A program made the translations under genes and the position numbers. 64,000 bases of DNA from Candidatus Fimivivens sp. (lineage in GTDB: Bacteria; Patescibacteriota; Minisyncoccia; Moranbacterales; UBA1568), in assembly GCA_035560715.1 (NCBI GenBank), contig DATMYW010000034.1, positions 16,439 through 80,438 on the forward strand, in the 5' to 3' direction. Shown one piece after another: positions 15,102-59,650 of the stretch. Under the pieces are notes generated by a model. It was not told where the DNA came from, made no database searches, and was given only the letters and a program-made list of their open reading frames with translations. Positions within the stretch are counted from its first letter, which is position 1. The number at the start of each line of letters is the position of its first letter.

Positions 15102-15130
15102 ACGTCATCGATGAAGCGTGTACTGTCCGG

Positions 15131-16960: not shown

Positions 16961-17091
16961 AAGTTCCGATGAATTGTGCGAGAAGCTTATGGAAATCAGG
17001 CGGAGGAATTCAGGGCGATGATAGCACGAATGCAGGTCATTCGCAACCGTCCGGGATGCGGAACGATGCCTCGGATAAGGGTCTGAACCGG

Positions 17092-17120
17092 TTTACAGGG
17101 TGTTCGCACCGAGGTATACT
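17092..17120 (+). promoter_or_regulatory. Sigma70-like promoter TTTACA-17nt-TATACT for the five-gene membrane glycosyltransferase operon
   Basis: TTTACA is at 17092-17097 and TATACT at 17115-17120, with an exact 17-nt spacer, 60 nt upstream of the 17182 start. The -10 hexamer is the same as in the trpB promoter. Confidence 0.45.
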
Positions 17121-17181
17121 GTCGTCGTGTCCGACACCGGCCTGGTCACATGTCTTTAGCCAATATGATAGCTCACTCGCC

Positions 17182-18945: not shown

Positions 18946-21152
18946 TCGTAATCGGACGAAAATTCATCTTATTCAATCACATGCGGGAGCTGATACGGAA
19001 AAGCGGCAGTTACCTAAGAAGGCATCACATACTCGCCGCTTTCGTGGCGTATGCCGCCTTGGCGCTTGTCTTTACGTACCCGTTGGTCTTCAACCTGACA
19101 TCGGTGATTCCGAAGGGAGGGCGGGACTCATTCCTGGTGATCGCGACTATAGAGCGGCTGTCGGATATCGTGAGGGAGCAGGGGTGGCGAAACGGTTTCA
19201 TCACCCTTGCGAAGACATACCAGTTGAACAGTTATCTTCCTTATGTCGTCATCGGACAGTTCACGACCGCATACGGAGCGAATAACATCCTGTTTCTCGG
19301 GAGTTTCCTATTTTCTGCGATCGGGGCGTACATGCTTGCGTATCACCTTACGAAAAGCGGTCCCGGATCGTTTTTGGCAGGTCTCATTTTCGCGTTCTCC
19401 CCGTTTCATACCTATCAGTCGACGGCCATCCATGTCGGATCGATGCATCAGGAGCTGTTGCCATTTTTCGCGTTGTACCTGATGCGCTTTTTCGAGGGTT
19501 TCCGATTCAGGCACTTTGCCATCGTTTCCGTACTGGCCGCGCTTATCGCGCTGACCGAACATCAGTTGCTCGCGTTCACGGTGATCTTCACGGCTGGATT
19601 TCTCGCGTATGCCGTCGTCACAAACAGGCGTGTCATCAGGGACAAGAGATTCTGGGCGTATTTTTCGGTTTCCGGCGCGCTGCTCTTCGTCTTTGCTCTC
19701 GTCCTGTTCAAACCGCTGCTTTCCGTGACATTTTCCGGAAACAATTATCTCGATCCCGGCATCAAGAGTGTACGGAATCTGTCAGCGTACGCGGTCGATA
19801 CGGTCCTCCCTCCGCAGTTTCACGGCATCTGGCCGGGGCTCAACGAATTCCTGCAGGAAAATGTCTTCCATACGTCGCACAAAGGGGATTCGTACTATGT
19901 CGGTCCGACGGTCTTCCTACTGATCGGATATGTCCTGTTCCGTCTGTTCGGGTCGCGTCGTTTAGCTTCTGATGATGGCGGAATGCTCCGTTTTTGGATT
20001 ATCGTGACTCTCGGTTTTCTCGTATTGTCGTTCGGTCCGACGATGAGCCTGTATCGCTGGACGATCCCTCTTCCGTATTTCGTTATTTATAAACTCGTCC
20101 CGTTTTACTCGAATATCAGGACCGTCGGACGTTTTCTGGTATTCGCGATCCTGGGTGCCTCCGTTCTTTCCGCGTATGCCGTGGCCGATATCCGCCGGCG
20201 AAATGTATCGAAGAACGTCGCCCGTGTCGCGATGGTGTGCGCATGCGCACTGGTTCTTGTCGAATATTGGATCGCCCCGATCCGTACGACCGTTTTTACG
20301 CATTCACCGTTCTATGACCGAATCGCGGAAGACGGAGGGACATACAGACTGCTTGAGATTCCGGGCAGCACGAACGATGTCTTTTTCAACTACGAATGGA
20401 TCACCAGGAACGTCCATCACAAGGAATTGCTCAACGGAATGCCGATGGCACGTGAGATCGACGGTCAGTTCGACTTCCAAAAGAATACGCCAGTGGTTCG
20501 CGAACTGCTCTACTCGATCCCGAAGGGGAGCGACCCGCTGGGAAAGAGCCAGAACGATATTCTCCGGGGTTTCGAATGGGTGCAGGCTCCGGATATTCTC
20601 AATTATGCGGGCGTCGGATTCGTGACGGTAAGCAAGGAGTACACGTCCGCGGAAGTGCGGGACACCGTCGAGCGATTCATGAGAGCATACGTTCCTTCCG
20701 CGGAGCGGATTGAGGACGAATTCCTGATCGCATATGCGATACCGAGACTGGATCCGATGGGAATCTATGCCGTGTTCCGGATCGATGGCGGGGGATTTTC
20801 CGATGTCTTTCCCGCTACCGACGGTTCCATGCGACGGGAAATCGGCGACGGCGCACGACTGAACGTCGTAAACATGGAGTCGGTACCCAAGCGGGTAAAG
20901 ATCGTCGTCAGCGCCCAATCGGTCAGTGATATCGGCTTCGACGTCACGACTGATGGGATTGCGGGTACAAGACGGAATCAGGTAAGTCCTGATGCGGGGG
21001 AGTATCTTTTTGAGACGACGCTCCTTCCCGGAAACAATGAGCTCGTCTTCCATGTGACGGATCGGAACGGGAATCCCGTGGCCGTCCGAGAGAAAAAGAA
21101 GGATCGTTTCAGGGCACTTATCGTCAGTGCCGTTTCGATCGTGACGGAATAA
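18942..21152 (+). CDS. Large polytopic membrane protein of 736 aa, probably a GT-C-fold transferase from a different family than the paralogue set
   Basis: About 13 TM segments followed by a roughly 250-aa soluble C-terminal domain. It overlaps the upstream stop by 4 nt (GTG start). Confidence 0.6.
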   Translation: MIVIGRKFILFNHMRELIRKSGSYLRRHHILAAFVAYAALALVFTYPLVFNLTSVIPKGGRDSFLVIATIERLSDIVREQGWRNGFITLAKTYQLNSYLPYVVIGQFTTAYGANNILFLGSFLFSAIGAYMLAYHLTKSGPGSFLAGLIFAFSPFHTYQSTAIHVGSMHQELLPFFALYLMRFFEGFRFRHFAIVSVLAALIALTEHQLLAFTVIFTAGFLAYAVVTNRRVIRDKRFWAYFSVSGALLFVFALVLFKPLLSVTFSGNNYLDPGIKSVRNLSAYAVDTVLPPQFHGIWPGLNEFLQENVFHTSHKGDSYYVGPTVFLLIGYVLFRLFGSRRLASDDGGMLRFWIIVTLGFLVLSFGPTMSLYRWTIPLPYFVIYKLVPFYSNIRTVGRFLVFAILGASVLSAYAVADIRRRNVSKNVARVAMVCACALVLVEYWIAPIRTTVFTHSPFYDRIAEDGGTYRLLEIPGSTNDVFFNYEWITRNVHHKELLNGMPMAREIDGQFDFQKNTPVVRELLYSIPKGSDPLGKSQNDILRGFEWVQAPDILNYAGVGFVTVSKEYTSAEVRDTVERFMRAYVPSAERIEDEFLIAYAIPRLDPMGIYAVFRIDGGGFSDVFPATDGSMRREIGDGARLNVVNMESVPKRVKIVVSAQSVSDIGFDVTTDGIAGTRRNQVSPDAGEYLFETTLLPGNNELVFHVTDRNGNPVAVREKKKDRFRALIVSAVSIVTE

Positions 21153-21161
21153 CAGAAACGT

Positions 21162-22775
21162 ATGCGTTTACGGTTCCCGCCGATGAAGTTGAGGTCCGGG
21201 GAAGGGATGGCGCTTGCCGCGACTTTGGCGGCAGGCGTTTTCCTACGAGCATACCGCTTTCATGACTGGTTGCACTTCGGTTCCGACCAGTCGCGGGATG
21301 CCGTTATCGCGTCGGGCGCCGCGTCAGGGAATATCCCGTGGCCGTTGCTCGGTCCGGAGGCGGCACATACGGGTTTTCATCTCGGACCCGCCTACTATTA
21401 CTTCCAGATCGTATCAGCGAAACTGTTCGGTCGCGCTCCGGAGGTGTTCGCATATCCCGACCTGCTGTTTTCGGTTCTTTCGATCCCGCTCCTCTATGTG
21501 CTGCTCGCAAGGTTTGTACGACGTCCCATCGCGCTGTCACTCACGTTCGTATACGCCGTTTCCTCCTACTCTGTTTACTACTCGAGATTCGCGTGGAATA
21601 CGAACCCGATCCCATTCTTTTCGATGCTGTTCATCCTGTCTCTGTCGGAAATCCTGCATTTCGGCGGTCGATCGCGATGGATGTGGGTCATTTTGCTCGG
21701 AATATCCGTCGGGATCGGTGTGCAGCTGCACACGATGCTGCTGACGCTTTTCCCGATCGTCACGATCATGACCGCCGCCGTTGGCCTGCGATACGATTTT
21801 CGGGCCTGGAACCGCTGGCTTGCCGTACTGGCGATCGCGTTGTGTCTCAATGGGCCGCAGATCGTTGACGGCTTCGCTACGGGCTTCGCGAATACGCGTC
21901 AGTTCCTCTCCGTTTCTTCCGATAAGTCCGGCAGCGGGGCCTCTCGGCTGGTCCGGAATCTGGAAAACGCGGTGCTGTGTCATGCGGAGGCGAATGCGGT
22001 CATGCTTTCGGCGGTCGGAGAGAACGACAAATGCTCTTACATATCGCTGTGGAAGCATCCGTCGGTGTCCATGGCCAGGCTCGGCCGGAGACAGTTCGTT
22101 ACAAGGAGTCTGGGGTACGTTCTCAGTATGGCGTTTTCCGTCGCCGGGTACTGGTCGCTCGCGAGGCAATTCCGAAATGAGTCCGATCGACGGAAAAAGA
22201 TTCTGCTCGGTATCGTGCTCCTGTACGTCGTTCTCACTTTCGTGTTGTCGGTACCCGTTCTCTTCGATGCCCCGCTTCGGTACTTCCTGCATACGATATT
22301 CGTCCCGTTCCTGTTCGTCGCTCTGATGATCGAGCGGTATGGAACATCCGCTCGGGGACATCTCATTTCGGCCACCCTCGGTATCGCCGCGGTACTCGTG
22401 ACGACGAACCTATATGCACTCGGCTCGCAGGCGTCCCATCTCGCCGGCATGACCAGGGGAGACGATGGATTCGCGGTCCTCGATCAGGTTGAGTCTCTGG
22501 TACAGTTCGCCGTCAGCTCCTCGTCCGGCAATGAAGGGTACCTTCTCGGACGTCATACCTATTTCTCCGCGTACGCATCCCCACTTGCCTACGTGGCTTC
22601 TCTTCGCGGGTACGTCCTTCGCCGGGCGGAATCGATCGATGATGTCCCCACCGGTGCGGACGTATTCTATCTCTGGCGCCCCACTCCTCCGGATACGGAA
22701 AAAAGGTTCGACGGACGCGCGGTGGAGCGATCCGTCACGATCGGGAATCTCGAGTTTTACATGGTGAGAAAATAG
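21162..22775 (+). CDS. GT-C-like polytopic membrane glycosyltransferase, paralogue 3 of 5
   Basis: LRAYRFHDWLHFGSDQSRD, then LGPAYYYFQ, then AYPDLLFSVLSIPLLY, then YSRFAWNTNPIPF. Confidence 0.7.
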   Translation: MRLRFPPMKLRSGEGMALAATLAAGVFLRAYRFHDWLHFGSDQSRDAVIASGAASGNIPWPLLGPEAAHTGFHLGPAYYYFQIVSAKLFGRAPEVFAYPDLLFSVLSIPLLYVLLARFVRRPIALSLTFVYAVSSYSVYYSRFAWNTNPIPFFSMLFILSLSEILHFGGRSRWMWVILLGISVGIGVQLHTMLLTLFPIVTIMTAAVGLRYDFRAWNRWLAVLAIALCLNGPQIVDGFATGFANTRQFLSVSSDKSGSGASRLVRNLENAVLCHAEANAVMLSAVGENDKCSYISLWKHPSVSMARLGRRQFVTRSLGYVLSMAFSVAGYWSLARQFRNESDRRKKILLGIVLLYVVLTFVLSVPVLFDAPLRYFLHTIFVPFLFVALMIERYGTSARGHLISATLGIAAVLVTTNLYALGSQASHLAGMTRGDDGFAVLDQVESLVQFAVSSSSGNEGYLLGRHTYFSAYASPLAYVASLRGYVLRRAESIDDVPTGADVFYLWRPTPPDTEKRFDGRAVERSVTIGNLEFYMVRK

Positions 22776-22778
22776 CCT

Positions 22779-24362
22779 ATGCACGCAATTCTCCGACGAA
22801 TCGGAATCAAGAAAGCGGTGATCATTTCACTTGCGATCATCACGGTGCTCGGCCTGTCGATTCGGACGTATCGCTTTCACGATTGGCTCAGGTTCAATGC
22901 TGACCAATCCCGTGACGCCGGTATCGTGAGTGATGTCCTCGACGGGAAGATCGCGCTTCCGCTGTACGGTCCGAAGGCCGGAGGGACGGAGTTCCGACTC
23001 GGTCCGGCTTTCTATCACTTTGAGATCTTTTCCGCTTGGTTGTTCGGCAACCGGCCGGACGTGATGGCGTATCCCGACCTGTTTTTCTCGATCCTGACGA
23101 TTCCGCTCCTCTATATCTACCTTCGCAGGCGGTTCGGGATGCGGATATCGTTGTCGCTTACGTTTTTGTATGCGGTTTCCTTCTATACGGTCAAATATTC
23201 GCGATTCGCATGGAATCCGAACTCGCTTCCGTTCTGGTCGCTGTCGTTTTTGCTCGGATTTCAGAAACTGTCCGAGGGAGCGCCGTCCGGCGGGAAACGA
23301 TGGTGGTTCTGGCCAGCAGTGACGGGTGTCGCGCTCGGCGTGGTGGTCCAGCTTCATACCCTGGCACTGGTCGCGTTTCCCACGATGGCCGTCCTGTCGT
23401 TCGCCTACCTGGCGCTTATTCGGAAACGGGATATACGGAAGCCGCTCGCCGTGGTATTCCTGATCGCTGTCGCCTGGAATGCCACTCAGGCATACGGGGA
23501 ATTCCGGACCGGCGGTGAGAATACGCGCGCGTTCATGAGCGGAGTCGGTACGAAGGAGAAGAAAGGGAGCGGCATGGCGCGCAACGCCATTAAGGAGGCG
23601 GTCTGCTATACGGATGCGAACGTCTACGTGCTTTCTTCCCGAGACCGTTCCGATACGTGCGAGATCAAGGGTATCACGAAGGGATCCGGTGCGGTCGTAT
23701 CCTTGCTTGGGCTTATTTTCATGATCGGCGGAATCGCACACTCGATACGTTCCGTGCTGAGAGAGCGGGACGAGCGGCGCGCATTCTTCACGCTCCAATT
23801 CCTGTCCGTCATGACGCTGTTCGCGCTCACGCTGCTTCCGCTTGCCAACGAGATATCGATGCGCTTCTTCCTCGTCATGACGTTCATGCCGTTCGTCTTC
23901 CTGGGCATGTGGATCGAATTCCTCGCGGAGCGCTTGCCGAAGCCTGCGGCGATGATCATATCCGGCATCGTCATCGTGTCGCTCGTCATGATGAACGCCG
24001 TCTCGATCGGACGTTCGTTCGTCGAATATGCCGGATACGCGACCCTGTCGGGAGGTGGGATGGATAACGTGACACTGAAGGAAGTGGAACAAGCGTCGGC
24101 CTTTATCGTCGCGAATGCGGGGGATTCGGATTCCGCGTATCTCGTCGGCGATGCGAAATATCTTTTCAAGGCACAGAAGTCCATCGACTATCTGACCAGG
24201 CGGGTCGGCATCCGCGTCTTACAGCCCGGGAAAAAAACGACCGAAGGCGTTCCGGTCTTTCTGGTCGACAACAGCGACAAGGCCGATGAGATCCTGGCCG
24301 CCGGCCACGTCGAGGCGTACGGCGTACTCGGTCGATTCACGATATTCAAACGCGAACTATGA
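22779..24362 (+). CDS. GT-C-like polytopic membrane glycosyltransferase, paralogue 4 of 5
   Basis: IRTYRFHDWLRFNADQSRD, then LGPAFYHFE, then AYPDLFFSILTIPLLY, then YSRFAWNPNSLPF. Confidence 0.7.
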   Translation: MHAILRRIGIKKAVIISLAIITVLGLSIRTYRFHDWLRFNADQSRDAGIVSDVLDGKIALPLYGPKAGGTEFRLGPAFYHFEIFSAWLFGNRPDVMAYPDLFFSILTIPLLYIYLRRRFGMRISLSLTFLYAVSFYTVKYSRFAWNPNSLPFWSLSFLLGFQKLSEGAPSGGKRWWFWPAVTGVALGVVVQLHTLALVAFPTMAVLSFAYLALIRKRDIRKPLAVVFLIAVAWNATQAYGEFRTGGENTRAFMSGVGTKEKKGSGMARNAIKEAVCYTDANVYVLSSRDRSDTCEIKGITKGSGAVVSLLGLIFMIGGIAHSIRSVLRERDERRAFFTLQFLSVMTLFALTLLPLANEISMRFFLVMTFMPFVFLGMWIEFLAERLPKPAAMIISGIVIVSLVMMNAVSIGRSFVEYAGYATLSGGGMDNVTLKEVEQASAFIVANAGDSDSAYLVGDAKYLFKAQKSIDYLTRRVGIRVLQPGKKTTEGVPVFLVDNSDKADEILAAGHVEAYGVLGRFTIFKREL

Positions 24363-25999
24363 TCCCTATGAACGATATTCTTCGTCGATTGCTGAGCCGG
24401 ACCAGGACCATACCGACATGGGTGTGGATACTGACCGCTATCCTGGCCGTCGGCATCGTGCTGCGTACGTACCACTTCCGGGAGTGGATGACATTCAATC
24501 CGGATCAGGCGCGCGACGCGCTTCTGGTTCAGGATGTCCTGGCCGGCCGCGCGCCGCTGCCCCTGTTGGGTCCGCAGGCCGGTAATACGGCCTTCAAACT
24601 CGGTCCGATCTTCTATCATTTCGAGATCGTTTCGGCAAAACTGTTCGGTACGGACGCGGTCAGCATGGCCTATCCCGACCTGATGTTCTCCATCCTGACC
24701 ATGCCGCTCCTTTTTGCGTTCTTGCTGAATTTTTTCGGCAAACGTCTCGCGCTCGTCCTTACCGCGCTGTATTCGGTCTCCTTTTTCATCGTCACGTATT
24801 CCCGCTTCGCCTTCAATCCGAATTCCATTCCGTTCTTCACACTGCTCTTCCTGACCGGCCTGCTTGCGATCATGAATGCCGGGAAGAGCGAGAAACTTTC
24901 TTCCGCGTCGATGGCAGGTATCGCCATGGGAGTCGGTATCCAGCTTCATGCCCTGCTTCTGGTCGCGATGCCGATCGTCGCCGCGACCGTGTTCATTTTC
25001 CAGTTTGCCCGCAGTCGGTTCGTTTGGAAGAGCGCCCTGACGATGCTAGCCTGTTCCCTCCTGATGAACATTCCCCAGATTGTCGACGGATCGCAGGCCG
25101 GCGGATCCAATTTTCGCGCGTTCGTCGGCGGCGCGGGTGCGGAGACGCGATCATCCGATTCGAAACTGGCGCGGAACACCGTGAACGACATCAGTTGTCA
25201 TATCCAGGGAGTAGCTTATATCGCGACCGGCATCGGAAACGGTGATAAATGCGACCTGATGAACCTGCGATCGCGGATCGCGTCAAAAGGGATACGGACC
25301 AATGTTGAGGATATCGTGATCGCCGCGATCGGGGTATTGCTGTATGTCGGGGGATCGGCCTTGTTAGTGATCCGCGCCCGACGGGAAACCGATGAGCAAA
25401 AGCGGAATTTCCTCCTATTGTGCGGTTCCTACTCACTTGTCGTGTTCCTGATATTCATTCCCGTTTCCGCAAGCGTCTCGATACGTTATTTTATCGTGAT
25501 CGCATTTGTTCCGTTTCTGTTTATCGGCCTCTGGATTCGGGTCATAGCGGATCGATTCCAAGAAAAGGTCGCGAAGTCCGTATGCCTGTTGGCGATGGTC
25601 GGATTTGCGACTTCGAACGTATCGTCGATCTCGGACGCCGTGGCGAAACTCTCCGACGGAAGCGCGAGTACGGTCGATGTCGCCGTATATGGCGAGGTCG
25701 AACGCATGGGATCGTATATCATGGACGGGAACGTGTCCGATCGGGAAATCTATCTGTCAGGTGGAAGCAAGTACCTGAAGCGGTTCTATATGCCGCTCAA
25801 GTATTTCGCCGCACGAGGCGGTATCGTCCTGACGAAGGTCGACAGCGAGCGTCCGGTCGATCCGAACGTTCCGATGTATTCCATCACGAAACGCCGACCC
25901 GGGACAGTATCGTCTGGTGTCGATGTGACGCTCCGACGAGATTTCGGAAATGTCAGTATCGTCAGGGTTGAAACTTCTGGTGCTGAATCGGACGAATAA
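24359..25999 (+). CDS. GT-C-like polytopic membrane glycosyltransferase, paralogue 5 of 5
   Basis: LRTYHFREWMTFNPDQARD, then LGPIFYHFE, then AYPDLMFSILTMPLLF, then YSRFAFNPNSIPF. It overlaps the upstream gene by 4 nt. Confidence 0.7.
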   Translation: MIPMNDILRRLLSRTRTIPTWVWILTAILAVGIVLRTYHFREWMTFNPDQARDALLVQDVLAGRAPLPLLGPQAGNTAFKLGPIFYHFEIVSAKLFGTDAVSMAYPDLMFSILTMPLLFAFLLNFFGKRLALVLTALYSVSFFIVTYSRFAFNPNSIPFFTLLFLTGLLAIMNAGKSEKLSSASMAGIAMGVGIQLHALLLVAMPIVAATVFIFQFARSRFVWKSALTMLACSLLMNIPQIVDGSQAGGSNFRAFVGGAGAETRSSDSKLARNTVNDISCHIQGVAYIATGIGNGDKCDLMNLRSRIASKGIRTNVEDIVIAAIGVLLYVGGSALLVIRARRETDEQKRNFLLLCGSYSLVVFLIFIPVSASVSIRYFIVIAFVPFLFIGLWIRVIADRFQEKVAKSVCLLAMVGFATSNVSSISDAVAKLSDGSASTVDVAVYGEVERMGSYIMDGNVSDREIYLSGGSKYLKRFYMPLKYFAARGGIVLTKVDSERPVDPNVPMYSITKRRPGTVSSGVDVTLRRDFGNVSIVRVETSGAESDE

Positions 26000-30539: not shown

Positions 30540-32060
30540 TCAATACATGATCACCGCGACGGGTTGCATCTTGGCGACCGGTTTGACGATGTCGTTTTCC
30601 TTGACGCTCGCGATGACGGCATCCGCGTTCTTATAGTGGGCACTGTCCTGCTCGATGACCTTGGACGAGCGGCCGTTGTAGAGCTTCACGCCACGGGTCG
30701 CGAGTTTCTTGTCGAGTTCTTCTCGGCTTTGCGGGACGACCGATTCGGCCGCGGCCTTCGGCTTTCCGGCGCCGTGGTTGCACGAGAAGAACGTAGACTC
30801 GTTGCCGTCCGTACCGACGCAGAGATAGCCTTCCGTCGACATCGAGGTCGGGATGAACGCGGGCTCGCCGGTCTCGCGGAAAAGGGGGTGATCCGACATG
30901 CGAGACGGTCCGTAGGCTCGGCTGGTCCCGTTCCGATGGATCCAGGCATTCTTACCGAAATGTTCTTCCTCGGAGACCAGGATATGCGGCATGTCATATA
31001 CCAACTCGAATCCCGGATCCCGTCCCAATACTTCCTTGATCGTCTCGGATACGTTGTGCGCGATGATGGCACGGTTCGCATGCGCGAAGTTGGAGCACGC
31101 GTTCCGGGCCTCCATGTACATCTTTCCGTCCTCGCCGTCGCCCTCGAACGTAAACAGCTCTTCCTTGGCGCCGAAATCGAAGTCTTTGATCTTCTTCGCG
31201 ATCGCGTCGATAACGCGCTTTCGGGGCGTGAAGAATGTCATCCTGCCGAGCCACGCCATGAGGGCTTGCGAGCGGTGTTCCCGCTTTTTGGCCGTATACA
31301 TGTACATGGTGTACTGGCCGAGAATGCCGGACCCGCAGTGGACCATGAACAGATACTGCCCCTTTCGGATTCCGAGTTTTTGCGCCAGGACGGGATCTTC
31401 GAGATCGGTCACCCTCATCAGATCGAGGAAATGATTTCCTGCGGCGCCGAGAATGCCTGACCGGAACTTGGCGAAAAAAAGAAACAGTCTCGGGATGACC
31501 TCGTAGATGCTCTTTCTGGAGACTTCCTTGCCGTAGAAGTTTCCACGATCGAGGGAATTCTCCCGTTCAAACTTCGTTTCGATGCCAAGATGATCTATTG
31601 CCGCACCGACACCCTTGCGACAGATATCCACGATGACACGGAAGGGAAGAACCGTGCCGATAAGGGATTTAGTCGGAACTCGCTCCACGAGCTTCTGAAA
31701 CAGCTTGTCGATATCTTCTGAAGACAGGTCGTTTTCCGTCATGTTCGTCCGAATGAGTCGCATTCCGCAGGCCGGATCCGTGTCGTTGACCTGGGGGAGT
31801 ATGAATTTTTCCGAGGCGATGGTCGTACCGGTCGCGTTCTTTCGTCCGGGCTTCGAATGGACATCTGCCATCGCGGCGACATGACGAAACAGGCCGTCAT
31901 TGCTTGCGACGCATTCCAATTGGGCAAGCGTGCTGTCGGCCGGCAGCAATTCATCCTGCACATGAAACACGACCGGAACCTTCATCCGGTCGGTCTTCAT
32001 CTCGCTCCGAAAGCCGCCGGTTCTCGTGAAATCGTTTTCGTCGATCATATTCCTATTCAT
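30540..32060 (-). CDS. rtcB: RNA-splicing ligase RtcB family (3'-phosphate/5'-OH RNA ligase)
   Basis: AMADVHSKPGRKNATGT (His/metal site) and SCNHGAGK (NHGAG motif). The 506-aa length fits the family. Confidence 0.85.
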   Translation of the reverse strand: MNRNMIDENDFTRTGGFRSEMKTDRMKVPVVFHVQDELLPADSTLAQLECVASNDGLFRHVAAMADVHSKPGRKNATGTTIASEKFILPQVNDTDPACGMRLIRTNMTENDLSSEDIDKLFQKLVERVPTKSLIGTVLPFRVIVDICRKGVGAAIDHLGIETKFERENSLDRGNFYGKEVSRKSIYEVIPRLFLFFAKFRSGILGAAGNHFLDLMRVTDLEDPVLAQKLGIRKGQYLFMVHCGSGILGQYTMYMYTAKKREHRSQALMAWLGRMTFFTPRKRVIDAIAKKIKDFDFGAKEELFTFEGDGEDGKMYMEARNACSNFAHANRAIIAHNVSETIKEVLGRDPGFELVYDMPHILVSEEEHFGKNAWIHRNGTSRAYGPSRMSDHPLFRETGEPAFIPTSMSTEGYLCVGTDGNESTFFSCNHGAGKPKAAAESVVPQSREELDKKLATRGVKLYNGRSSKVIEQDSAHYKNADAVIASVKENDIVKPVAKMQPVAVIMY

Positions 32061-51408: not shown

Positions 51409-51555
51409 TCCCGCATATTACCGCGCGCTGTCCTGGGGGAAAAGTATACATTCTATAGGGTTCCCGAATATGTAATCGGATTGACACCGGTCGTTTTTGA
51501 GTGTACCGTGAGTCAATCACATTACCAATACATCAACCCTAAGGAGGGCAGTACC

Positions 51556-52359
51556 ATGAGAATACCCGTAATAGGTACGGGGCATCCGGAGAAAACGTCG
51601 GCATGTGAGATGGCATATTGCCATGGTAAACTGTATCTGTCGCTGACTCAGGAGGCATTCCGCTTTCTCTCGGAATCCGATATCCCGAATCTCACCCGAC
51701 CCGCGGATACGTACGGGAATATTTTGGGACTCCGAGCCTCATTCTCGGTTCCCAAGAGTCAGCATGACCGACTCGGTTTCGGATCAGTATTCATTCCCGA
51801 TTACAAAATGCCGTATTCTTCGGGTCGGGAAAAGAATTCGTTCACCTGGTCATATCAGATCGCTCCGTCAACCGAATCCCTGCAAAACGTAATCTCGACT
51901 CTCGCAAACATCTCGGATGCTTTGCGATCATACGGATCGTCGAGACCCGTGCATCTTCCAGGGATGCATGCCGCACCCATCATTTCCAAGACCGGAAGGG
52001 ATAGTCCGTACGCGTATGGTGTCGCATTCCCAGCGGCAGTGGGTACGTTCTGGAGCGGTTCTCCTGACACTTATTCTCGGCACGAGTCGCCCGCGAACGC
52101 GATGCGCGAAGTACTCGATCTCCTGGGGCGAACTTCTGAAATGACAACGGAATGTATCGAAGCCGATTCTCAGGAAGGACTCGTGCGGATTCGCTGTCCG
52201 GATGGAAAGGGCACGTTTCTCGAGCGCGCTGTCAGTCGCACGCCTTCTTGTTATGTCCTGCTTTTTCCCAAAGGTCATCCGTCGATACGGCAGTATATCG
52301 TCCTGCTCTGCGGCGCGGCGGAAATCTTTAGAATAGCCCGCGATGCGATATCGCGTTAA
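51556..52359 (+). CDS. Hypothetical soluble protein, 267 aa, no recognisable domain
   Basis: A strong SD, AAGGAGGG, lies 7 nt upstream of the ATG (Met26 of the track ORF). A terminator hairpin follows. Confidence 0.5.
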   Translation: MRIPVIGTGHPEKTSACEMAYCHGKLYLSLTQEAFRFLSESDIPNLTRPADTYGNILGLRASFSVPKSQHDRLGFGSVFIPDYKMPYSSGREKNSFTWSYQIAPSTESLQNVISTLANISDALRSYGSSRPVHLPGMHAAPIISKTGRDSPYAYGVAFPAAVGTFWSGSPDTYSRHESPANAMREVLDLLGRTSEMTTECIEADSQEGLVRIRCPDGKGTFLERAVSRTPSCYVLLFPKGHPSIRQYIVLLCGAAEIFRIARDAISR

Positions 52360-52366
52360 CGAACAT

Positions 52367-52396
52367 GCCGGACATCAAAACTGTCCGGCTTTCGAT
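52367..52396 (+). terminator. Hairpin terminator GCCGGACA, a TCAAAAC loop, TGTCCGGC, then TTTCGATT
   Basis: An 8-bp stem with a U-rich tail, 8 nt after the stop, between convergent genes. Confidence 0.45.
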
Positions 52397-52427
52397 TCGT
52401 CACTGAAGAAGTCGGGCTGAACGTCGA

Positions 52428-53246
52428 CTATCGGATATCCGAACACGCACCCTTGAGCGTCCGTACCGAGAAGAAACCGAGATCGAAGAGGTGTACGGCA
52501 CCGTTAAATGCGTCATCGGCAGTGTCTGCGCAAAGAAGGATGTTCGAAGCGACGGGAAGTTCCCCTCGTCGTTTTTCGATTTCATGATAGGGAATGTTCA
52601 GCGCACCCGTTATGCGATCCTTACCCGACGTCTCAGACGACCGTATATCGACGGGATAGTAAGAGATTTCCCCCTGGGAAATCAGGCTTTTCCACGTCGC
52701 GGCGTCGATAAAGGTTACCTTGGAACGATCAATGGGCGAGGATGAATTCGGCGCAGTGATGACCGACCCGCCTGCCTGGATCCATCCGCCAAGATCGTCG
52801 GCCACGAACGCGTACGGCACCTCCTTTTTCGAAAGAGCTTCCGAAGCGCCCTCATCTTTCGATGCGTCGCCTGATGATACGAGCAGTACGGTTCCGCCTT
52901 CGGGAACATCAAGTCCGGCCAATTGATCGGGAGACGCGATATCGATCGATCCAGCCGCATGGGAGAGAGCGAACTCAGAATCCGATCGGAGGTCTGCGAC
53001 GATGACGGGAGTACCCGCAGTGAGCATCGACCGGAGATCGCTCACCGAAAGCGAGGGGAGAGACCGCTTCTCCGATGCCGACCGCGTATCATCGCCGGTC
53101 GATCCGGTGACCTGTCGTGTCACGGAACCCTTTATCGCGAAAAATCCGAGAACGATCACTACCAGACCGAAACCGATCAGCATCGCGATCGAGTCTTGTT
53201 TCGAGGTCATTCGAGTTTCCGTTGTTGTGTTCATGTCCGTGTTCAT
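52428..53246 (-). CDS. Membrane-anchored rhodanese-like (sulfurtransferase-fold) protein with tandem domains
   Basis: An N-terminal TM anchor and two rhodanese-like halves. The active-site loop, LLCADTADDAF, has the Cys but no canonical Arg. Confidence 0.55.
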   Translation of the reverse strand: MNTDMNTTTETRMTSKQDSIAMLIGFGLVVIVLGFFAIKGSVTRQVTGSTGDDTRSASEKRSLPSLSVSDLRSMLTAGTPVIVADLRSDSEFALSHAAGSIDIASPDQLAGLDVPEGGTVLLVSSGDASKDEGASEALSKKEVPYAFVADDLGGWIQAGGSVITAPNSSSPIDRSKVTFIDAATWKSLISQGEISYYPVDIRSSETSGKDRITGALNIPYHEIEKRRGELPVASNILLCADTADDAFNGAVHLFDLGFFSVRTLKGACSDIR

Positions 53247-53326: not shown

Positions 53327-54322
53327 TTAGCCGAGTATTGCGCCTATGAATTCCGGGCGACCGTTCAAAAAATCCCGAATCGGCATAGGCGCCTTTCCTT
53401 CCGGCTGAATTTCCTCGATGAACACGACTCCGAGTCCCGTGCGCACGGCGACGTTCTCACCCATCTCGAACACTTCTCCGAATTTCCTCTCCACCGAGGG
53501 ATCTGACTTCTGAATTGATATCTTTGTCAGCTTGAGACGGAGCAACCCTTCCTCACGTCTCCAGAACGTGAATATGCCCGGCCATGGATGAAGTCCTCGA
53601 TAACGGTTCAGAATCGCGATGGCGGTATCATTCCAGAATATCCGACCGTCCTCGCGTTCGATCAGTTCGCACAGTGTAGCGTCCGATCCGCATTGTTCCC
53701 TCGGTGTGATCCGTTTTTCGATCCAGCGGGGGATCACGCCGTCGAGAAGCCTTAGTCCATCCTCGGACATGCGTTTCAGGAGACTTTCGGTCGTATCGCC
53801 GTCATCGATGACGAGCGATACCTGGGAAAGGATCGGCCCGGTATCCACGCCTTCGTCCATCAGCATGACGGTGACACCGGTCTCGGTATCGCCGCAAAGC
53901 AGCGCGTTCTGAACCGGCGAGGCACCGCGCCATCGTGGCAGCATCGACGCATGAACGTTCACGCATCCGAAACCGGGCATATCCAGTACGTCCTGCGGAA
54001 GGATGCGTCCGTACGCCGCGACGATAACGAGGTCCGGCTCGTATGATCTGAGTCTCGCGACGGCATTCTCATCGAAACGAACGGGCTGTTCGACCGGAAT
54101 CTTCCTGTCGATGGCGATTTGTTTGACGGCAGAGGGAACGATTTCACGCTTCCGACCCGCCGGTTTGTCATGTCTGGTATAGACGGCAACGACATTGTAT
54201 CCGCGATCCAGAATGCCTGAAAGTATGTCACCCGCGAATGTCGGAGTGCCCATGAATACGACTCGGACTTTTGGAACCGGGGGAACATCCGTCGGATCCG
54301 TCTTGACCGAATCAGAGTGCAT
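53327..54322 (-). CDS. fmt: Methionyl-tRNA formyltransferase
   Basis: VVFMGTPTFAGD, then the HASMLPRWRGASP (SLLP-like) motif, then the C-terminal domain. The start is taken at Met63 of the track ORF, overlapping def by 11 nt. Confidence 0.85.
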   Translation of the reverse strand: MHSDSVKTDPTDVPPVPKVRVVFMGTPTFAGDILSGILDRGYNVVAVYTRHDKPAGRKREIVPSAVKQIAIDRKIPVEQPVRFDENAVARLRSYEPDLVIVAAYGRILPQDVLDMPGFGCVNVHASMLPRWRGASPVQNALLCGDTETGVTVMLMDEGVDTGPILSQVSLVIDDGDTTESLLKRMSEDGLRLLDGVIPRWIEKRITPREQCGSDATLCELIEREDGRIFWNDTAIAILNRYRGLHPWPGIFTFWRREEGLLRLKLTKISIQKSDPSVERKFGEVFEMGENVAVRTGLGVVFIEEIQPEGKAPMPIRDFLNGRPEFIGAILG

Positions 54323-54803
54323 AGTTTTTATCTGAGGATTGCCTATCGACATCGTTTTCGTTGACGCGGTCCGTAAAGAGGATGCCTTCGAGATGGTCGA
54401 ACTCATGCTGGAGCACGGCGGCGAGAAACCCTTCGGCGTCGATCCGCTTCCGTTCCCCGTTCTGATCGATGTACTCCATCGTGGCACGTTTCGACCGATC
54501 GATGACATAATACCGATCCGGAACGCTCAGACAACCCTCTTCCGACGTCATCGTCTCATCCGACAACATAGTGAAGACCGGATTAAAGAAAACGGATACG
54601 CGGCCGTCGACCTCGATGACGAACAACCGCAGCGGACGGCCTACTTGGGGTGCCGCGAGTCCGACGCCGTCTGATACGCGCATCAGACTGATCATGTCGG
54701 TAACCAGCCTGCGCATTTCCGACGTTTTGACATCCGAAACGCGGGCGGCCTTCTTTCGGAGTGCGCCTTCAGTGTCTTTGTCGATAGTGAGGATGTCCAG
54801 CAT
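54312..54803 (-). CDS. def: Peptide deformylase
   Basis: All three signature motifs are present: GLAAPQVG, EGCLS and HEFDHL. Confidence 0.9.
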   Translation of the reverse strand: MLDILTIDKDTEGALRKKAARVSDVKTSEMRRLVTDMISLMRVSDGVGLAAPQVGRPLRLFVIEVDGRVSVFFNPVFTMLSDETMTSEEGCLSVPDRYYVIDRSKRATMEYIDQNGERKRIDAEGFLAAVLQHEFDHLEGILFTDRVNENDVDRQSSDKNYAL

Positions 54804-54810
54804 ATCGTGT

Positions 54811-56802
54811 TCAGGTCAGTGAAATCGGATCGGGGTCGAACGTCCAGGCGGTTCTGATATCAAGCAATACGTTTCGCAACGGTTCGGGAAACGGCGTTTC
54901 ACGGGGCACCGTCACCAGAACGCTGCGCTCATACCGCCCACGAACCTTCGGGATAAGCGGCTTCATGGGGGATGATATCCGAACGGTCTTCGTTTCGCTG
55001 ACGAATTCCCTGAATCGATCGCACGCATCTTCCGCGGCCCGTTTCGCTTCCGATTCAATCGTATCACGAAATGATATTCGGAACAGTCGATAATTCGGCG
55101 GATATCGCAACGATTCCCGATCGCGGGAGACCTGACCCATCAGCTCGCTGACTGATTGCTGAGCAATGTGCTGCAGCAGCTGCCGTTCCGGTCGGTATGT
55201 CTGGACGATGACGGTGCCGTCCCTTCCTATGAGCGACTTGGCTCGGGAGATGACCCGAAGAAACCGCTCGTCGGCCTGATAATCGGGAAACGAGAGGAAA
55301 TTGTCCGCGTCCATGATAGCAATCAGTGAGGCTTTCGGCAACCCGCCGATATTGAGGACGGAAGGCGTTCCGATCAGTATGCCGGCCGACTGCGCCGCCT
55401 CGTACGACTTGGATCGGTCGGCCTTTCGGAAGGTCTTCTCGTCTATCCGAAACATTGTCGCGCCGCCGAACAGCCTCGCGGCCTCACGCTCGATCTTCTC
55501 CGTGCCGGTCCCAACGGTACGGAATTCCAGTGACCCGCACTTCGCGCAGCGAGGGAATGAAACCGTCCTATAGGGGCACGAAGGGCATCTGAACCCGCCT
55601 TCCCGTGTCGACCGAAGCGCCCGGTCGCAGTCGGGACATCGCGGCACTTCCTTGCACGAGACACAGACCGAAAACGAATCGAATCCGCCACGGCTGACGA
55701 TGAGCAGGACCTGTCTTCCGTCTTTCCTTGCCAAGATGACGGCGTCACGCAGTTCATCCGAAATCGGAGAATAGTTCTTTTTCCATCGTTCCTTGCGCAT
55801 ATCGACGGTCGAAATTCGTGCCGCCGGGGGATCCGGAACTCCTTCGCCGAAACGCAGAACCCTGACCTCGCCCATTCGTTCCCGCAGTGCCGTGTCGAGT
55901 CCCTCGACCGAACCTGCCAGAAGGAGTTTTGATTCGTGGAGCCGTGCCAGTGTCATGGCGACGCGGCGTGCGTCGTATCGCGGACTCATGTCCCATTGTT
56001 TGTATCCCACCGCCTCGGCTTCCTCGAGCAGTACGACGAGTCCGAGTTTCCTGAAGGGAGCGAACAGCGCCTGACGCGTACCGATGACGATATCCGCCTG
56101 ACCGGATCGGATCCGTTCCCATGCGTCGAAATACGCTCCGTCACTTTGCGAGCCGGAGAGCGTCGCTACGCGCTCCGCGCCGAAGCATCGATGGAGTTCG
56201 CGTTCCACGAAAGGGATAGCGATCAATTCCGGCACAAGCACGAGAACCTGCGATCGCCGCCCGATATCCCGCTTCGCGCCGGAAGTTATGCGTAGCGATG
56301 TCGTAATGTCGGTCTCCAGGAAGAACGGCTTCGCGTCAGACGGATCAAGAAGCGTCTTCACGGCGTCAGATTCGTCGCGAGTGAGACGGAAGGTCTGACT
56401 CGGAATGGTATCAGTCATATGAGTTTTCGCCCGTTCCTTCACGGTATGTGGAAGGAAATGCCCGAGCGTTTTCCCGAGAGGGGTAATGCATTCGGCCGAT
56501 ATCGACTCGGCGAGCACGATCTGTCCGTCGGTGATGAACGATTCGCGGATGATCGACTTCACATATCTGAACCGCCCACTCGGACGTTCTGCCGGAGCGA
56601 TACGTTCGCACGTGAGGACGATACCCCTGACCGTCCTCGGTCCGAAGGGGACCATGACGAGAGAACCGCGCGGAATGACTGATTCCGACAGATACGAATA
56701 CCGCTGCCGGTTCCGGAGGGGAATCGGTACGACCGGCACGATATCACAAAAATAGAGGGATTCCGGACTCATGTGTCCATTGTAGCCGTTCCCGACCCGC
56801 AC
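54811..56802 (-). CDS. priA: Primosomal protein N' (PriA) homologue with degenerate Walker A and DExH motifs
   Basis: Collinear with PriA throughout: VLVLVPE, IVIGTR, the CxxC...CxxC...CxxC...CxxC zinc module, and IVQTYRPE. Walker A reads ITSGAKRD and motif II reads LLEEAE. Confidence 0.75.
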   Translation of the reverse strand: MRVGNGYNGHMSPESLYFCDIVPVVPIPLRNRQRYSYLSESVIPRGSLVMVPFGPRTVRGIVLTCERIAPAERPSGRFRYVKSIIRESFITDGQIVLAESISAECITPLGKTLGHFLPHTVKERAKTHMTDTIPSQTFRLTRDESDAVKTLLDPSDAKPFFLETDITTSLRITSGAKRDIGRRSQVLVLVPELIAIPFVERELHRCFGAERVATLSGSQSDGAYFDAWERIRSGQADIVIGTRQALFAPFRKLGLVVLLEEAEAVGYKQWDMSPRYDARRVAMTLARLHESKLLLAGSVEGLDTALRERMGEVRVLRFGEGVPDPPAARISTVDMRKERWKKNYSPISDELRDAVILARKDGRQVLLIVSRGGFDSFSVCVSCKEVPRCPDCDRALRSTREGGFRCPSCPYRTVSFPRCAKCGSLEFRTVGTGTEKIEREAARLFGGATMFRIDEKTFRKADRSKSYEAAQSAGILIGTPSVLNIGGLPKASLIAIMDADNFLSFPDYQADERFLRVISRAKSLIGRDGTVIVQTYRPERQLLQHIAQQSVSELMGQVSRDRESLRYPPNYRLFRISFRDTIESEAKRAAEDACDRFREFVSETKTVRISSPMKPLIPKVRGRYERSVLVTVPRETPFPEPLRNVLLDIRTAWTFDPDPISLT

Positions 56803-56920: not shown

Positions 56921-58705
56921 ATGACCTCAGCCTCTGAAAACGGTCTCGATGCAATTCGCAATACCGTGAGAGAACTTGCCTCCTCTGACCGTAGACGTCA
57001 TGCTATTCCCGAATCGAATATCCGGGCCGTGAGTATTTTCCTCGATTCGCTCGGTGCCGCGAGCGCCCGTTTTGCCTGCGTCAGGTACGAGAACGGCGAC
57101 GATATCGTCACGAACGGATTGATTTGCGATCAAGAACCGCTTGGTGAAGGTGAGTATTCTTACTCGTTCGTCCCACTGGGATTCATAGTCAGCGGAAACA
57201 TCACCGTCATCAAGGACGGAAAGGGCATGAAAAATCTCGGTGAAGGAGATTTTTTGGGACTGTTTGAGACGAGCGATTGGATACAGACCGGTCAGAAAAG
57301 GCAGATCGGCGACTGGTCTCTGGTCGCATCCGGCGAAGCGATGGTTTTCTATTTCGGTCCTTCCCTGCTTACCGATGAATCCGAGGCGGCCTCCGAATTC
57401 CGGACACATCTCGTCAGCCTCGCGCGCGAAGATCACGTCCCACAGCCGATCACGACGCTCCCTTTGCTTGATTGGGTCGCGAGTCATACGATGAAGGTTC
57501 GTCCCCGGGACTGCGCCATCATCGCACACACCCATCTCCTTCCGAATAACCTGCCGCTGTTCAGACATCTTTCTTCGTTGGTCGATTTCGGAAGGATCTA
57601 CGTCATGGATAAGCCGTATTCGACGGTCCGATCGGCGCTCAACGATCTTGTCTTGGCGGGATTCGAGGTTATCCCGGTCCGGATGGAAGCTGATCTGCCG
57701 TATGAATTCGCGGTTTCCAAGAGTCTCGATGTCCTCTGGAACAAGGTGATCGACGATCAGAAGCGGCGGCAGTACCGGAAGATTCTCATCATCGACGACG
57801 GCGGGGACGTATGGCAGTCCGTTCCGTGGGACGACCTTTCCGGCGTATCTATTGCCGCAGTCGAACAGACACAACGAGGCATCGCCCGTGCGGAGCGAAC
57901 GGGGAAACGGTTTCCTCCTATCGTCAGTGTCGCATCATCGGGCATCAAGAAGAACGTGGAGTCCGAGTTCATCGGCGTTTCCGTCGTGAAGAAGCTCGAC
58001 GATCTCGGAATCCTCACGTCATCGGGACGTGTCGGCATCATCGGCATGGGCAGTATCGGTTCGGCAGTTGAGAAATCGTTGCTGGAGAGGGGAATCGACC
58101 CGCTCTTCTATGATCCGGTCTATCATGTGATGCCGGTTGATTCTCCTCGAAGACGCGATTCTCTGGACGTGCTTCTTGAGGAATGTGATCTCATCGTCGG
58201 AACGACGGGAACGGACGCACTGAAGGGCCTCCCGTTTGAACGGGTCACGACCGGCAAGAAGACGCTCGCGAGCGCGTCGTCTGCCGATCTCGAATTTTCC
58301 TCACTGCTCAAATTGGCGCCGCATCGGTCGGAGCCGTTCGAGACGGTATCGATACCGGTGCATGAGCGCCTGACGATCGATATCCTGAACGGCGGATATC
58401 CCATCAACTTTGATCGGCAGAAGGACGCGACCCCGGACGACGATATCGTATTGACGCGGTGTCTCATGTATGTCGGCGCCATGCAGGCACTCGAACTCAT
58501 TGGCGGTGACGCACCCGACCGGGCCGTCTTCAATCTCGATCCCGTTTCACAAAAGTATTTGCTGTCCCGGTGGATTGACGAGAAGAACACCTCCGGACGC
58601 ACGCCCCGTTTCTCCCGGGCGGATGTCGACGAAATCGTCAACGCTTCATCCTTCGTCGGTGGGAAGGAAATGAAGACCATCTGGATGGACCAATTGAACG
58701 GATAG
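56921..58705 (+). CDS. Two-domain protein: an N-terminal cNMP-binding-like beta-barrel fused to an S-adenosyl-L-homocysteine hydrolase-like domain
   Basis: The N-terminus has GEGDFLGLFE....AMVFYF (CAP/cNMP-like). The C-terminus has IIDDGGDV, LSGVSIAAVEQTQRGIA (compare EETTTGV), IGMGSIGSAV (GxGxxG) and LIVGTTGTD...ASASSADLEF (compare CNIGHFDxEID). Confidence 0.65.
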   Translation: MTSASENGLDAIRNTVRELASSDRRRHAIPESNIRAVSIFLDSLGAASARFACVRYENGDDIVTNGLICDQEPLGEGEYSYSFVPLGFIVSGNITVIKDGKGMKNLGEGDFLGLFETSDWIQTGQKRQIGDWSLVASGEAMVFYFGPSLLTDESEAASEFRTHLVSLAREDHVPQPITTLPLLDWVASHTMKVRPRDCAIIAHTHLLPNNLPLFRHLSSLVDFGRIYVMDKPYSTVRSALNDLVLAGFEVIPVRMEADLPYEFAVSKSLDVLWNKVIDDQKRRQYRKILIIDDGGDVWQSVPWDDLSGVSIAAVEQTQRGIARAERTGKRFPPIVSVASSGIKKNVESEFIGVSVVKKLDDLGILTSSGRVGIIGMGSIGSAVEKSLLERGIDPLFYDPVYHVMPVDSPRRRDSLDVLLEECDLIVGTTGTDALKGLPFERVTTGKKTLASASSADLEFSSLLKLAPHRSEPFETVSIPVHERLTIDILNGGYPINFDRQKDATPDDDIVLTRCLMYVGAMQALELIGGDAPDRAVFNLDPVSQKYLLSRWIDEKNTSGRTPRFSRADVDEIVNASSFVGGKEMKTIWMDQLNG

Positions 58706-59098: not shown

Positions 59099-59650
59099 AT
59101 GAACGAACGAAAGCTCTTCTTGGGCATCCCGCTGTCACCGAAATCGAAGACGCGGATCGTGCAGTCGGTCGCCAAATGGGGCGATCTGCCGGTCTTCGCG
59201 GAGCGTCCCGAGAACCTTCACGTGACGGTGCTGTTTCTCGGGTTCGTGACCGACGAGCACGCGGTGTGGATCGCCGAAATCGCCGCGGATATCTGTTCGG
59301 AGCATGAACCGTTCGATCTGACATTCCGTACGGCGGTCACGGTTCCCGATGTCGGACCCGTGAAGATAATTCACCTCGTCGGGGACGAGAGCGAACCGCT
59401 TCTACGGCTTCAGAATGCGCTTGAGTGCGAACTGCTCGGCAAAAAGGCCGAGGGGAAATGCTTCCGTCCGCACGTGACGCTCGCACGGGTCAAGCGGCAC
59501 GAGTTCGCGTCCCTGTCGCCGGATCGCCTCCCGATATTCCCGCAGGACATTTCCATATCCGAACCGGTCATGTCGGTCGTACTTTATGAAAGCATCGGGA
59601 ACGGGGCGAAGAAACAGTACCTGCAGATGGACGAGTTTCCGCTCGGATAG
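59099..59650 (+). CDS. thpR: RNA 2',3'-cyclic phosphodiesterase (2H phosphoesterase, LigT/ThpR)
   Basis: Two H-x-T-x motifs, HVTVLF and HVTLAR, spaced as in LigT. Confidence 0.8.
   Translation: MNERKLFLGIPLSPKSKTRIVQSVAKWGDLPVFAERPENLHVTVLFLGFVTDEHAVWIAEIAADICSEHEPFDLTFRTAVTVPDVGPVKIIHLVGDESEPLLRLQNALECELLGKKAEGKCFRPHVTLARVKRHEFASLSPDRLPIFPQDISISEPVMSVVLYESIGNGAKKQYLQMDEFPLG

Follow-up and report, generated by a model that had tools for sequence, protein, structure and literature searches.

A Moranbacteria-type PriA orthologue with eroded helicase motifs: a predicted pseudohelicase of replication restart

The priA locus and the architecture of its product

The window analyzed in this study is the whole 64,000-nucleotide stretch of contig DATMYW010000034.1 (assembly GCA_035560715.1, positions 16,439 to 80,438 of the forward strand), and its subject is the priA gene on the minus strand, which encodes a homologue of the replication restart helicase PriA with degenerate ATPase and helicase motifs. 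The gene is followed by def, fmt, and a rhodanese-domain gene (Table 1). The priA-def-fmt order, headed by priA and called conserved in a first-pass annotation made from the sequence alone, was confirmed in the window and in relatives, and the block of four genes was the same at the locus of an intact PriA (P0085) and at those of three degenerate PriAs (P0037, P0050, and P0004). In these loci, Cpn10 and a CtpB-like protease were located downstream and LigT, WecG, and GluRS upstream, and the window showed the same order. The mechanical open reading frame (ORF) of fmt overlapped def by 197 nt, which was reduced to 11 nt by a start at the Met at 54322; this start is likely because the gene lengths and the overlap then match those of relatives (P0037 locus).

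The mechanical ORF of priA (54811..56802, minus strand) encoded 663 aa from a GTG codon, and the identical public protein HWQ59988.1 was annotated from M11 with 653 aa. Since the public protein starts there and M11 was kept in about 90% of the relatives, the gene probably starts at 56772. The 663-aa form is used for the numbering of the domain rows in Table 1, and the 653-aa form for the strand and helix positions assigned by DSSP.

The protein is a genuine, full-length PriA orthologue, in agreement with the first-pass annotation, which had aligned it with PriA along its whole length. It matched the NCBIfam equivalog TIGR00595 with 271.7 bits (cutoff 230.35, E 1e-80), contained both PriA terminal domains, and matched the PriA chains of E. 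coli and K. pneumoniae in the PDB over residues 133-660 (E ~1e-51), with a sequence identity to canonical PriA of about 22-24%. Scores on the lineage-specific sub-models of PRK05580 were under the respective cutoffs, which is no surprise in a phylum so distant. The Pfam scan of the protein gave no DEAD, ResIII, or Helicase_C match, whereas more distant relatives do have such matches.

Residues Y37, G46, G60, and K79 of the N-terminal 3'-DNA-binding domain (3'BD) were conserved at ≥90% in degenerate and intact PriAs alike. At the site of the winged-helix domain of canonical PriA, a short linker connected the 3'BD to helicase lobe 1. The linker was about 44-46 aa in degenerate as well as intact PriAs of the candidate phyla radiation (CPR), and it was also short in two members of the canonical set. 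Since the short linker is common to intact and degenerate CPR proteins, the winged-helix domain is missing across the CPR PriA group, and its absence is older than the loss of the motifs; given the two canonical-set members, the domain is not universal in the PriA family. The Cys-rich region (CRR) was embedded in helicase lobe 2, with seven of its eight Cys residues 100% conserved in the clade. The elements VLVLVPE, IVIGTR, four CxxC pairs, and VIVQTYRPE named in the first-pass annotation were all found in the protein; VIVQTYRPE, which had been taken as a C-terminal block, instead closed helicase lobe 2 and lay outside the C-terminal domain (CTD).

Structure prediction with AlphaFold2 from an 83-sequence alignment gave a model with a mean predicted local distance difference test score (pLDDT) of 93.1 and a predicted template modeling score (pTM) of 0.92. 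The top nine Foldseek matches in the PDB were all PriA, the best being the fork-bound E. coli PriA (8fak_H, E 2e-47, TM-scores 0.80/0.82) and the second an E. coli construct with the winged-helix domain deleted (6dcr). Non-PriA helicases (Mfd, DEAD-box) came next, with query TM-scores below 0.45. The protein is thus confidently modeled in a PriA fold.

Table 1. Coordinates of priA, of the domains and motifs of its product, and of the neighboring genes in the window
Feature	Coordinates	Strand	Description
priA gene (probable start)	54811..56772	(-)	653 aa from M11; mechanical ORF reaches GTG at 56802
3'BD, aa 24-118	56449..56733	(-)	Pfam PF17764, E 4.4e-11, profile positions 3-96 of 96
Short linker at winged-helix domain site	56326..56448	(-)	~44 aa vs median 185 in canonical set
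Motif I remnant FFLETDITTSLRITSGAKRD	56266..56325	(-)	β1 runs into helix; P-loop 2 residues shorter; no Gly, no GK[TS]
Motif Ia VLVLVPE (DNA contact), kept	56227..56247	(-)	L/V/P/E 89-99% in degenerate clade
IVIGTRQ block (motif Ib region), kept	56071..56091	(-)	R243, F247, P249 at 100%
Degenerate motif II and aromatic-rich loop (ARL) GYKQWDMSPRYDARR	55963..56037	(-)	LEEA for DEEH/DEEQ; 1-aa insertion after; ARL intact
Degenerate motif III	55897..55929	(-)	KLLLAGSVEGL vs xxxxGSATPSx
CRR, four CxxC pairs	55537..55665	(-)	CVSC..CPDC..CPSC..CAKC; two predicted Zn sites
Degenerate motif V	55327..55383	(-)	GTPSVLNIGG vs GTQMxxKGxD
Degenerate motif VI	55207..55269	(-)	ERFLRVISRAKSLIGRDGTVI vs ERxxQxxxQxxGRxGR
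CTD	54826..55098	(-)	Pfam PF18074, 31.6 bits vs cutoff 26.9, E 3e-7
def (peptide deformylase)	54312..54803	(-)	starts 7 nt past priA stop codon
fmt (methionyl-tRNA formyltransferase)	53327..54322	(-)	likely start M at 54322, 331 aa; mechanical ORF to 54508
Rhodanese-domain gene	52428..53246	(-)	fourth member of conserved priA-def-fmt-rhodanese block

Helicase motifs and DNA-contact elements

The registers of the motifs were taken from a MAFFT alignment with 120 database relatives and from a HMMER pairwise alignment to the K. pneumoniae PriA, and the two agreed. Motifs I, II, III, V, and VI are lost from the window PriA, and motif IV is eroded too. The Walker A sequence of motif I, G(V/I)TGSGKT, or GPASSGKT in the CPR, was aligned to TD--ITTS, which contains neither Gly nor Lys. 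In the AlphaFold2 model, strand β1 (FFLE) occupied residues 150-153 and helix α1 began at residue 156, and with only two residues between them no phosphate-binding loop is left. The core GSATP of motif III was replaced by AGSVE, motif IV NR(R/Q)G by SRGG, and the QxxGRxGR of motif VI aligned to RAKSLIGR. The patterns G....GK[ST] and Q..GR..R had no match anywhere in the sequence of the protein.

The first-pass annotation had reported changes in Walker A, motif II, and motif VI. All three changes were borne out, and the erosion of motifs III, IV, and V, which it did not mention, has to be added to them. Its reading of motif II as LEEA in place of DEEH was correct, with the addition that intact PriAs carry DEEH or DEEQ. 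For Walker A, the loss held under both aligners and the register ITSGAKRD did not, since this segment sits in the helix after the P-loop, where GAKR falls inside α1 and SIKK is its counterpart in the intact CPR PriAs. The loss of the motif VI arginines likewise stood, while the aligned segment is RAKSLIGR rather than RVISRAKS. These shifts of register leave the conclusion of motif loss unchanged, and gap placement under two independent aligners restored no intact Walker A/B signature. The window PriA therefore carries no competent signatures of a superfamily 2 (SF2) helicase, and both ATPase activity and 3'-5' unwinding are predicted to be absent. The replacements at the ATP site varied by subclade (LEEAE, TEEQDE, DFDGHD, VDADDD, and TEEQDQ), as would be expected if the sequence had drifted once the enzyme was inactive and not if a new catalytic site had formed.

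Retention was scored in 88 degenerate relatives at 100 positions that were ≥90% conserved in intact PriAs. Our results showed that the ATP-site residues were mostly gone from the degenerate clade: the Walker A residues were retained in 1-12%, the motif II Asp in 7%, the Gly and Ala of motif III in 0% and 7%, and the Gln, Gly, and two Arg residues of motif VI in 6-15%. In motif V, the G and T were kept and the Q/M/K/G/D residues were retained in 1-33%. The DNA-contact residues behaved differently. W228 was invariant (100%), as were R243, F247, and P249, the ARL residues K268, Q269, D271, P274, and Y276 were kept in 98-100%, and the 3'BD residues Y37, G46, and G60 in 94-99%. The E. coli ARL (Y327-Y335) can be crosslinked to the lagging-strand template as well as to the fork junction (PMC5175346). 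The window PriA itself kept IVIGTRQ..FAPF, the ARL sequence GYKQWDMSPRY, the four CxxC pairs, and VIVQTYRPE. The ATP site has thus been given up, and what persists is the face that contacts DNA, together with the zinc module.

The distribution of constraint over the protein differed as well. In the subclade of the query (group A), the CRR had the lowest column entropy (0.72 bits; lobes and 3'BD, 1.3-1.4 bits). In intact PriAs, by contrast, conservation was highest in the lobes. Four residues, R232, K384, R388, and F416, were conserved in the degenerate clade only.

Compared with canonical PriA (E. coli and K. pneumoniae; 4NL4, 6DGD, and 8FAK), the window PriA shares the 3'BD, the two RecA-like lobes, the CRR with its four CxxC pairs, the CTD, the ARL, and motif Ia, and it is without motifs I, II, III, V, and VI and without the winged-helix domain. 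The comparison with intact PriAs of Moranbacteria and other Patescibacteria (P0085, GCA_028711705.1, L044) is closer. These proteins have about 650-680 aa, sit at the same locus, are 33-36% identical to the window PriA, and are also devoid of the winged-helix domain, but they keep GPASSGKT, DEEQD (few DEEH), GSATPS, NRQG, GTQMxTKGWD, and QAAGRxxR, none of which is kept in the window PriA. They are presumably active ATPases. Judged against canonical PriA, the intact CPR proteins are themselves atypical: their motif II reads DEEQ rather than DEEH in 33 of the 35 genomes, and the winged-helix domain is missing.

Selection and distribution of the degenerate PriAs

The ratio of nonsynonymous to synonymous substitution rates (dN/dS) was calculated by the Nei-Gojobori method. 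Between the window priA and its closest relatives with DNA available (63-66% identical), dN/dS was about 0.14, at a saturated dS of about 2, and the inference of selection rests on closer, unsaturated degenerate and intact pairs taken from the genome loci. For the degenerate pairs, dN/dS was 0.09 (L067/L071), 0.12 (L023/L027), and 0.20 (L007/L009), and for the intact pairs it was 0.11 (L042/L050), 0.13 (L057/L076), and 0.15 (L031/L050); the overall ranges were 0.05-0.20 and 0.08-0.17, respectively. Within the degenerate pairs, the RecA-like lobes gave 0.02-0.19, the same range as in the intact pairs, and the CRR gave 0.00-0.11. Purifying selection on the degenerate PriAs is thus undiminished relative to the intact ones.

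When 185,579 genomes, each representing a species, were scanned with a query alignment covering both PriA states, 574 relatives emerged, of which the best 80 were analyzed. The relatives were mostly labeled Candidatus Moranbacteria/Moraniibacteriota (Patescibacteria, CPR). Among these best 80 of 574, the PriA was fully degenerate in 41, intact in 35, and partial in 3, so that the degeneracy proved to be lineage-wide among the relatives rather than peculiar to this genome.

The taxonomic labels of the contigs deserve a comment of their own. HWQ59988.1 is labeled Candidatus Fimivivens sp. (Oscillospiraceae, Bacillota), but the gene itself, its relatives without exception, and the synteny over more than 20 kb are those of Moranbacteria (CPR), and the contig was therefore probably mis-binned or mislabeled. 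Many third-party annotation (TPA) contigs of metagenome-assembled genomes (MAGs) with Moranbacteria-type priA loci were labeled 'uncultured Bdellovibrionales' (L008, L009, L012, and others).

In the PriA trees, which contained no Deinococcus sequence, all CPR PriAs formed one clade with 100% bootstrap support, with intact members inside, and group A was recovered as monophyletic with 98-100% support whichever column set was used. A single ancient loss, which the neighbor-joining tree of PriA seemed to show with 91% bootstrap on all columns, was rejected as a conclusion from that tree, because its support fell to 10% on the columns of the 3'BD, CRR, and CTD; the shared erosion of the lobes may itself draw the degenerate sequences together. 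The signal of the PriA tree being dependent on the lobes, it was replaced by an independent marker tree of def and fmt (75 loci, 470 columns, 200 bootstraps).

In the marker tree, the main degenerate set (41 genomes including the window) grouped with the partly eroded L056 and the intact L034/L044 lineage in 195/200 replicates, and the main degenerate set alone was recovered in 106/200. L079 and L082, which have lost motifs I, II, and VI, grouped with each other in 200/200 replicates and fell within the main degenerate clade in 0/200. L062, which has lost Walker A and motif VI and kept DEEQD, was paired with the intact L036 in 171/200, and its nearest PriAs were all intact. The nearest PriAs of L049, in which everything was lost, were also all intact. 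Lesser degrees of erosion were seen in L056, where GPPAAGKT and DDEH were kept and motif VI was lost (QAVYRSAR), and in L060, where DEEQ was changed to DEQQ (DEQQD) in a protein otherwise intact and 78% identical to intact relatives. L060, L056, and L062 could possibly be snapshots of inactivation in progress. The best reading of these sequences would be one old loss that includes this organism, and then at least two or three further erosions that arose independently, with intermediates still extant.

The nearest known counterpart is the PriA of Deinococcus-Thermus, in which GKT is changed to GRT and motifs I and II match poorly (Lopper et al. 2015, PMC4504706). The D. radiodurans protein shows no ATP hydrolysis and no unwinding, binds single-stranded DNA with a dissociation constant (Kd) of about 215 nM and forks with one of about 109 nM, both at a near-normal level, and forms complexes with DnaB (PMC4504706). 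Like the window PriA, this pseudohelicase is a full-length orthologue with a non-consensus Walker A/B that was retained as the PriA of its lineage. The same functional state is predicted for the window PriA. The erosion in the window PriA is far more extensive, with the P-loop deleted and motifs III, V, and VI gone, and the winged-helix domain is absent as well. Since the degenerate CPR PriAs nest in a 100%-supported CPR clade with intact members, the loss in the CPR appears to be convergent with that in Deinococcus-Thermus and not due to shared descent. In a 2017 review, the helicase motifs of PriA were described as conserved across bacteria with Deinococcus as the sole exception (PMC5778457). 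In literature searches on PriA in the CPR, Patescibacteria, or Actinobacteria, no account of such degeneracy was found; one preprint concerned an unrelated phylum.

Functional interpretation and significance

The window PriA is probably (roughly 75%) an ATPase-dead pseudohelicase that functions as a scaffold for fork recognition and helicase recruitment, and at the same time the single, orthologous PriA of the organism. In the proposed mechanism, abandoned replication forks or D-loops would be bound by the 3'BD together with the DNA-facing surface of the lobes (motif Ia, the TR..F.P block, and the ARL), and protein contacts of the CRR and the CTD would nucleate the reloading of the replicative helicase DnaB. 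The protein would neither translocate on DNA nor unwind it at the expense of ATP.

A proof of principle for helicase-independent function of PriA is provided by the K230 mutants of E. coli, which are ATPase-dead like the predicted window PriA. K230R (priA300) has no ATPase, helicase, or translocase activity and supports restart via PriA-PriB but not via PriA-PriC (PMC5778457). K230R, K230A, and K230D assemble primosomes and allow near wild-type growth via PriA-PriB, and they fail in Mu transposition (PMC5778457). These mutants are engineered and have their other motifs intact, whereas the CPR PriA is a natural and evolutionarily stable form. By analogy with the E. coli and Deinococcus proteins, we infer for the window PriA the lack of ATPase and helicase activity, the binding of forks, the recruitment of DnaB or a loader, and a role in restart. 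As far as analysis of the sequence can tell, the scaffold interpretation, already proposed in the first-pass annotation, is supported.

Several points weigh against this interpretation. The motif II glutamates E260 and E261 were kept in 72-82% of the degenerate sequences, and a second, weaker nucleotide site at an unknown location has been reported for E. coli PriA (PMC5778457), so that some nucleotide binding is formally conceivable. Helicase-dead E. coli PriA fails in the PriA-PriC pathway, and the restart pathway of the CPR must therefore tolerate such a loss. DnaB, its loader, SSB, PriB, and DnaD were sought among approximately 45 ORFs scanned in the window and none was found. Finally, MAGs are incomplete, and a highly divergent second PriA would fall below the best 80 of the 574 relatives.

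A neofunctionalized PriA, which would have kept the fold and DNA binding and given up restart, perhaps to become a regulator or protector that binds forks or D-loops or a platform for another pathway, is unlikely, although it is the likeliest of the alternatives. The shift of constraint from the lobes to the CRR in group A, and the four residues conserved solely in the degenerate clade, speak for it. However, all modules relevant to restart (3'BD, ARL, CRR, and CTD) were retained, the gene occupies the slot in which priA ancestrally lies and was not accompanied by a second priA in the window or in the best 80 of the 574 relatives, and the helicase-dead PriAs of E. coli and Deinococcus still perform primosome functions.

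Continued NTPase or helicase activity by way of a non-canonical site, whether built from substitute residues or located at the second nucleotide site, is very unlikely. The retained glutamates, the reported E. coli site, and the purifying selection still acting on the lobes would agree with this, but five motifs were lost together, the P-loop was shortened to two residues without glycine or lysine, and the replacements at the ATP site differed between subclades in the manner of drift. In E. coli, K230R alone is sufficient to kill the enzyme.

The pseudohelicase could also be a specialized paralogue, with a canonical PriA encoded elsewhere supplying the helicase activity. There is room for such a gene outside the 64 kb of the window, in the missing parts of the incomplete MAGs, and below the 80 best of the 574 matches in the genome scan. 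The degenerate and intact forms, however, share one syntenic slot in different genomes, and the tree of def and fmt tracks the PriA state as expected of orthologues. A tblastn search of the window with intact PriAs gave its sole match at 54.8-56.8 kb and no second priA, and the best 80 of the 574 relatives came from 80 different assemblies, with no genome containing two copies. The intact CPR-type PriAs score like the distant degenerate ones, and a genome with both would therefore have appeared twice. The first-pass annotation had raised the matter of a second priA, and with none in the window and none doubled among these 80 matches the paralogue has very little probability.

A decaying pseudogene or an artefact of alignment or assembly, for which the missing motifs and nothing further would speak, was ruled out by the reading frames intact in more than 100 diverged relatives, the low dN/dS of the degenerate pairs (0.05-0.20, like that of intact relatives), the confident fold (pLDDT 93.1, pTM 0.92), the presence of the identical protein in independent assemblies, the agreement of HMMER and MAFFT on the motif states, and the conserved synteny, and its rejection in the first-pass annotation therefore holds with a negligible residual chance of error.

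Other features of the neighborhood were also observed. Divergent from priA, a 594-aa ORF (56921-58705, plus strand) had one weak NAD-binding match (2-Hacid_dh_C) in the middle of the protein; a 595-aa counterpart with the same weak match lies near priA in the P0037 locus, and this is a conserved gene of unknown function. The window contains an RtcB RNA ligase (30540-32060, minus strand) and a LigT/2'-5' RNA ligase-family phosphoesterase (59099-59650, plus strand), the latter belonging to the conserved neighborhood upstream of priA in relatives. In a close relative (L003, 7167-9917), a 528-aa protein encoded directly upstream of priA joins a LexA DNA-binding domain to Peptidase_S24 and a DNA methylase, and its gene lies beside that of an NgoFVII-like restriction endonuclease; for a restriction-modification locus, the presence of a LexA-type autocleaving module is odd.

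The roughly 1 kb that separates Cpn10 from the rhodanese gene (51409-52427) had no Pfam, PHROG, or Rfam match. It contained a 292-aa ORF (51481-52359) with a TTG start and a flat GC content over the three codon positions (0.54/0.50/0.55, versus 0.60-0.68 at the third position in the neighbors), for which no protein or DNA counterpart was found in 83 loci; relatives have about 90 nt there (L003). Two readings fit this segment: non-coding DNA specific to the lineage, or an orphan gene. Scanning the 64-kb window with Rfam and for tRNAs gave no matches. The first 50 kb (0-50 kb) were dominated by envelope glycan genes, including GT2 and GT4 glycosyltransferases, two Wzy, a flippase, and two UDP-glucose dehydrogenases. 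At 13359-25999, six of seven large tandem ORFs matched PMT_2/PMT (GT-C, ArnT-like glycosyltransferase), and among them was a 736-aa ORF without a family match (18942-21152). Such an expansion of PMT_2/PMT paralogues is unusual for a small CPR genome.

This kind of protein has already been characterized experimentally in Deinococcus PriA and priA300, and the CPR case is not a new type of system. A motor-less PriA was known before in Deinococcus-Thermus only, and the predicted loss in the CPR is a second, independent, and more radical case. The balance tilts somewhat toward the view that Moranbacteria repeatedly discarded the ATPase motor of PriA, anciently in a large clade and then at least two or three times more, with intermediates, with purifying selection undiminished, and with the CRR becoming the most constrained part of the protein. 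The annotation 'replication restart helicase PriA' would be misleading for such proteins.

Specialists should find use for two of these results, namely that the loss recurs and that a natural series leads from intact to degenerate forms. Matched intact and degenerate orthologues are available for biochemical comparison, and the pattern of retention points to the CRR, ARL, and 3'BD as the indispensable parts of PriA. Recurrent loss under constraint strengthens the view, based on priA300, that the core function of PriA needs no helicase activity. If the interpretation is correct, Moranbacteria would offer a natural minimal PriA, with neither winged helix nor ATPase, together with orthologues in graded states of erosion with which restart independent of helicase activity could be dissected, and the essential ancestral job of PriA would be the recognition of forks and the recruitment of partners, with the helicase as a dispensable accessory.

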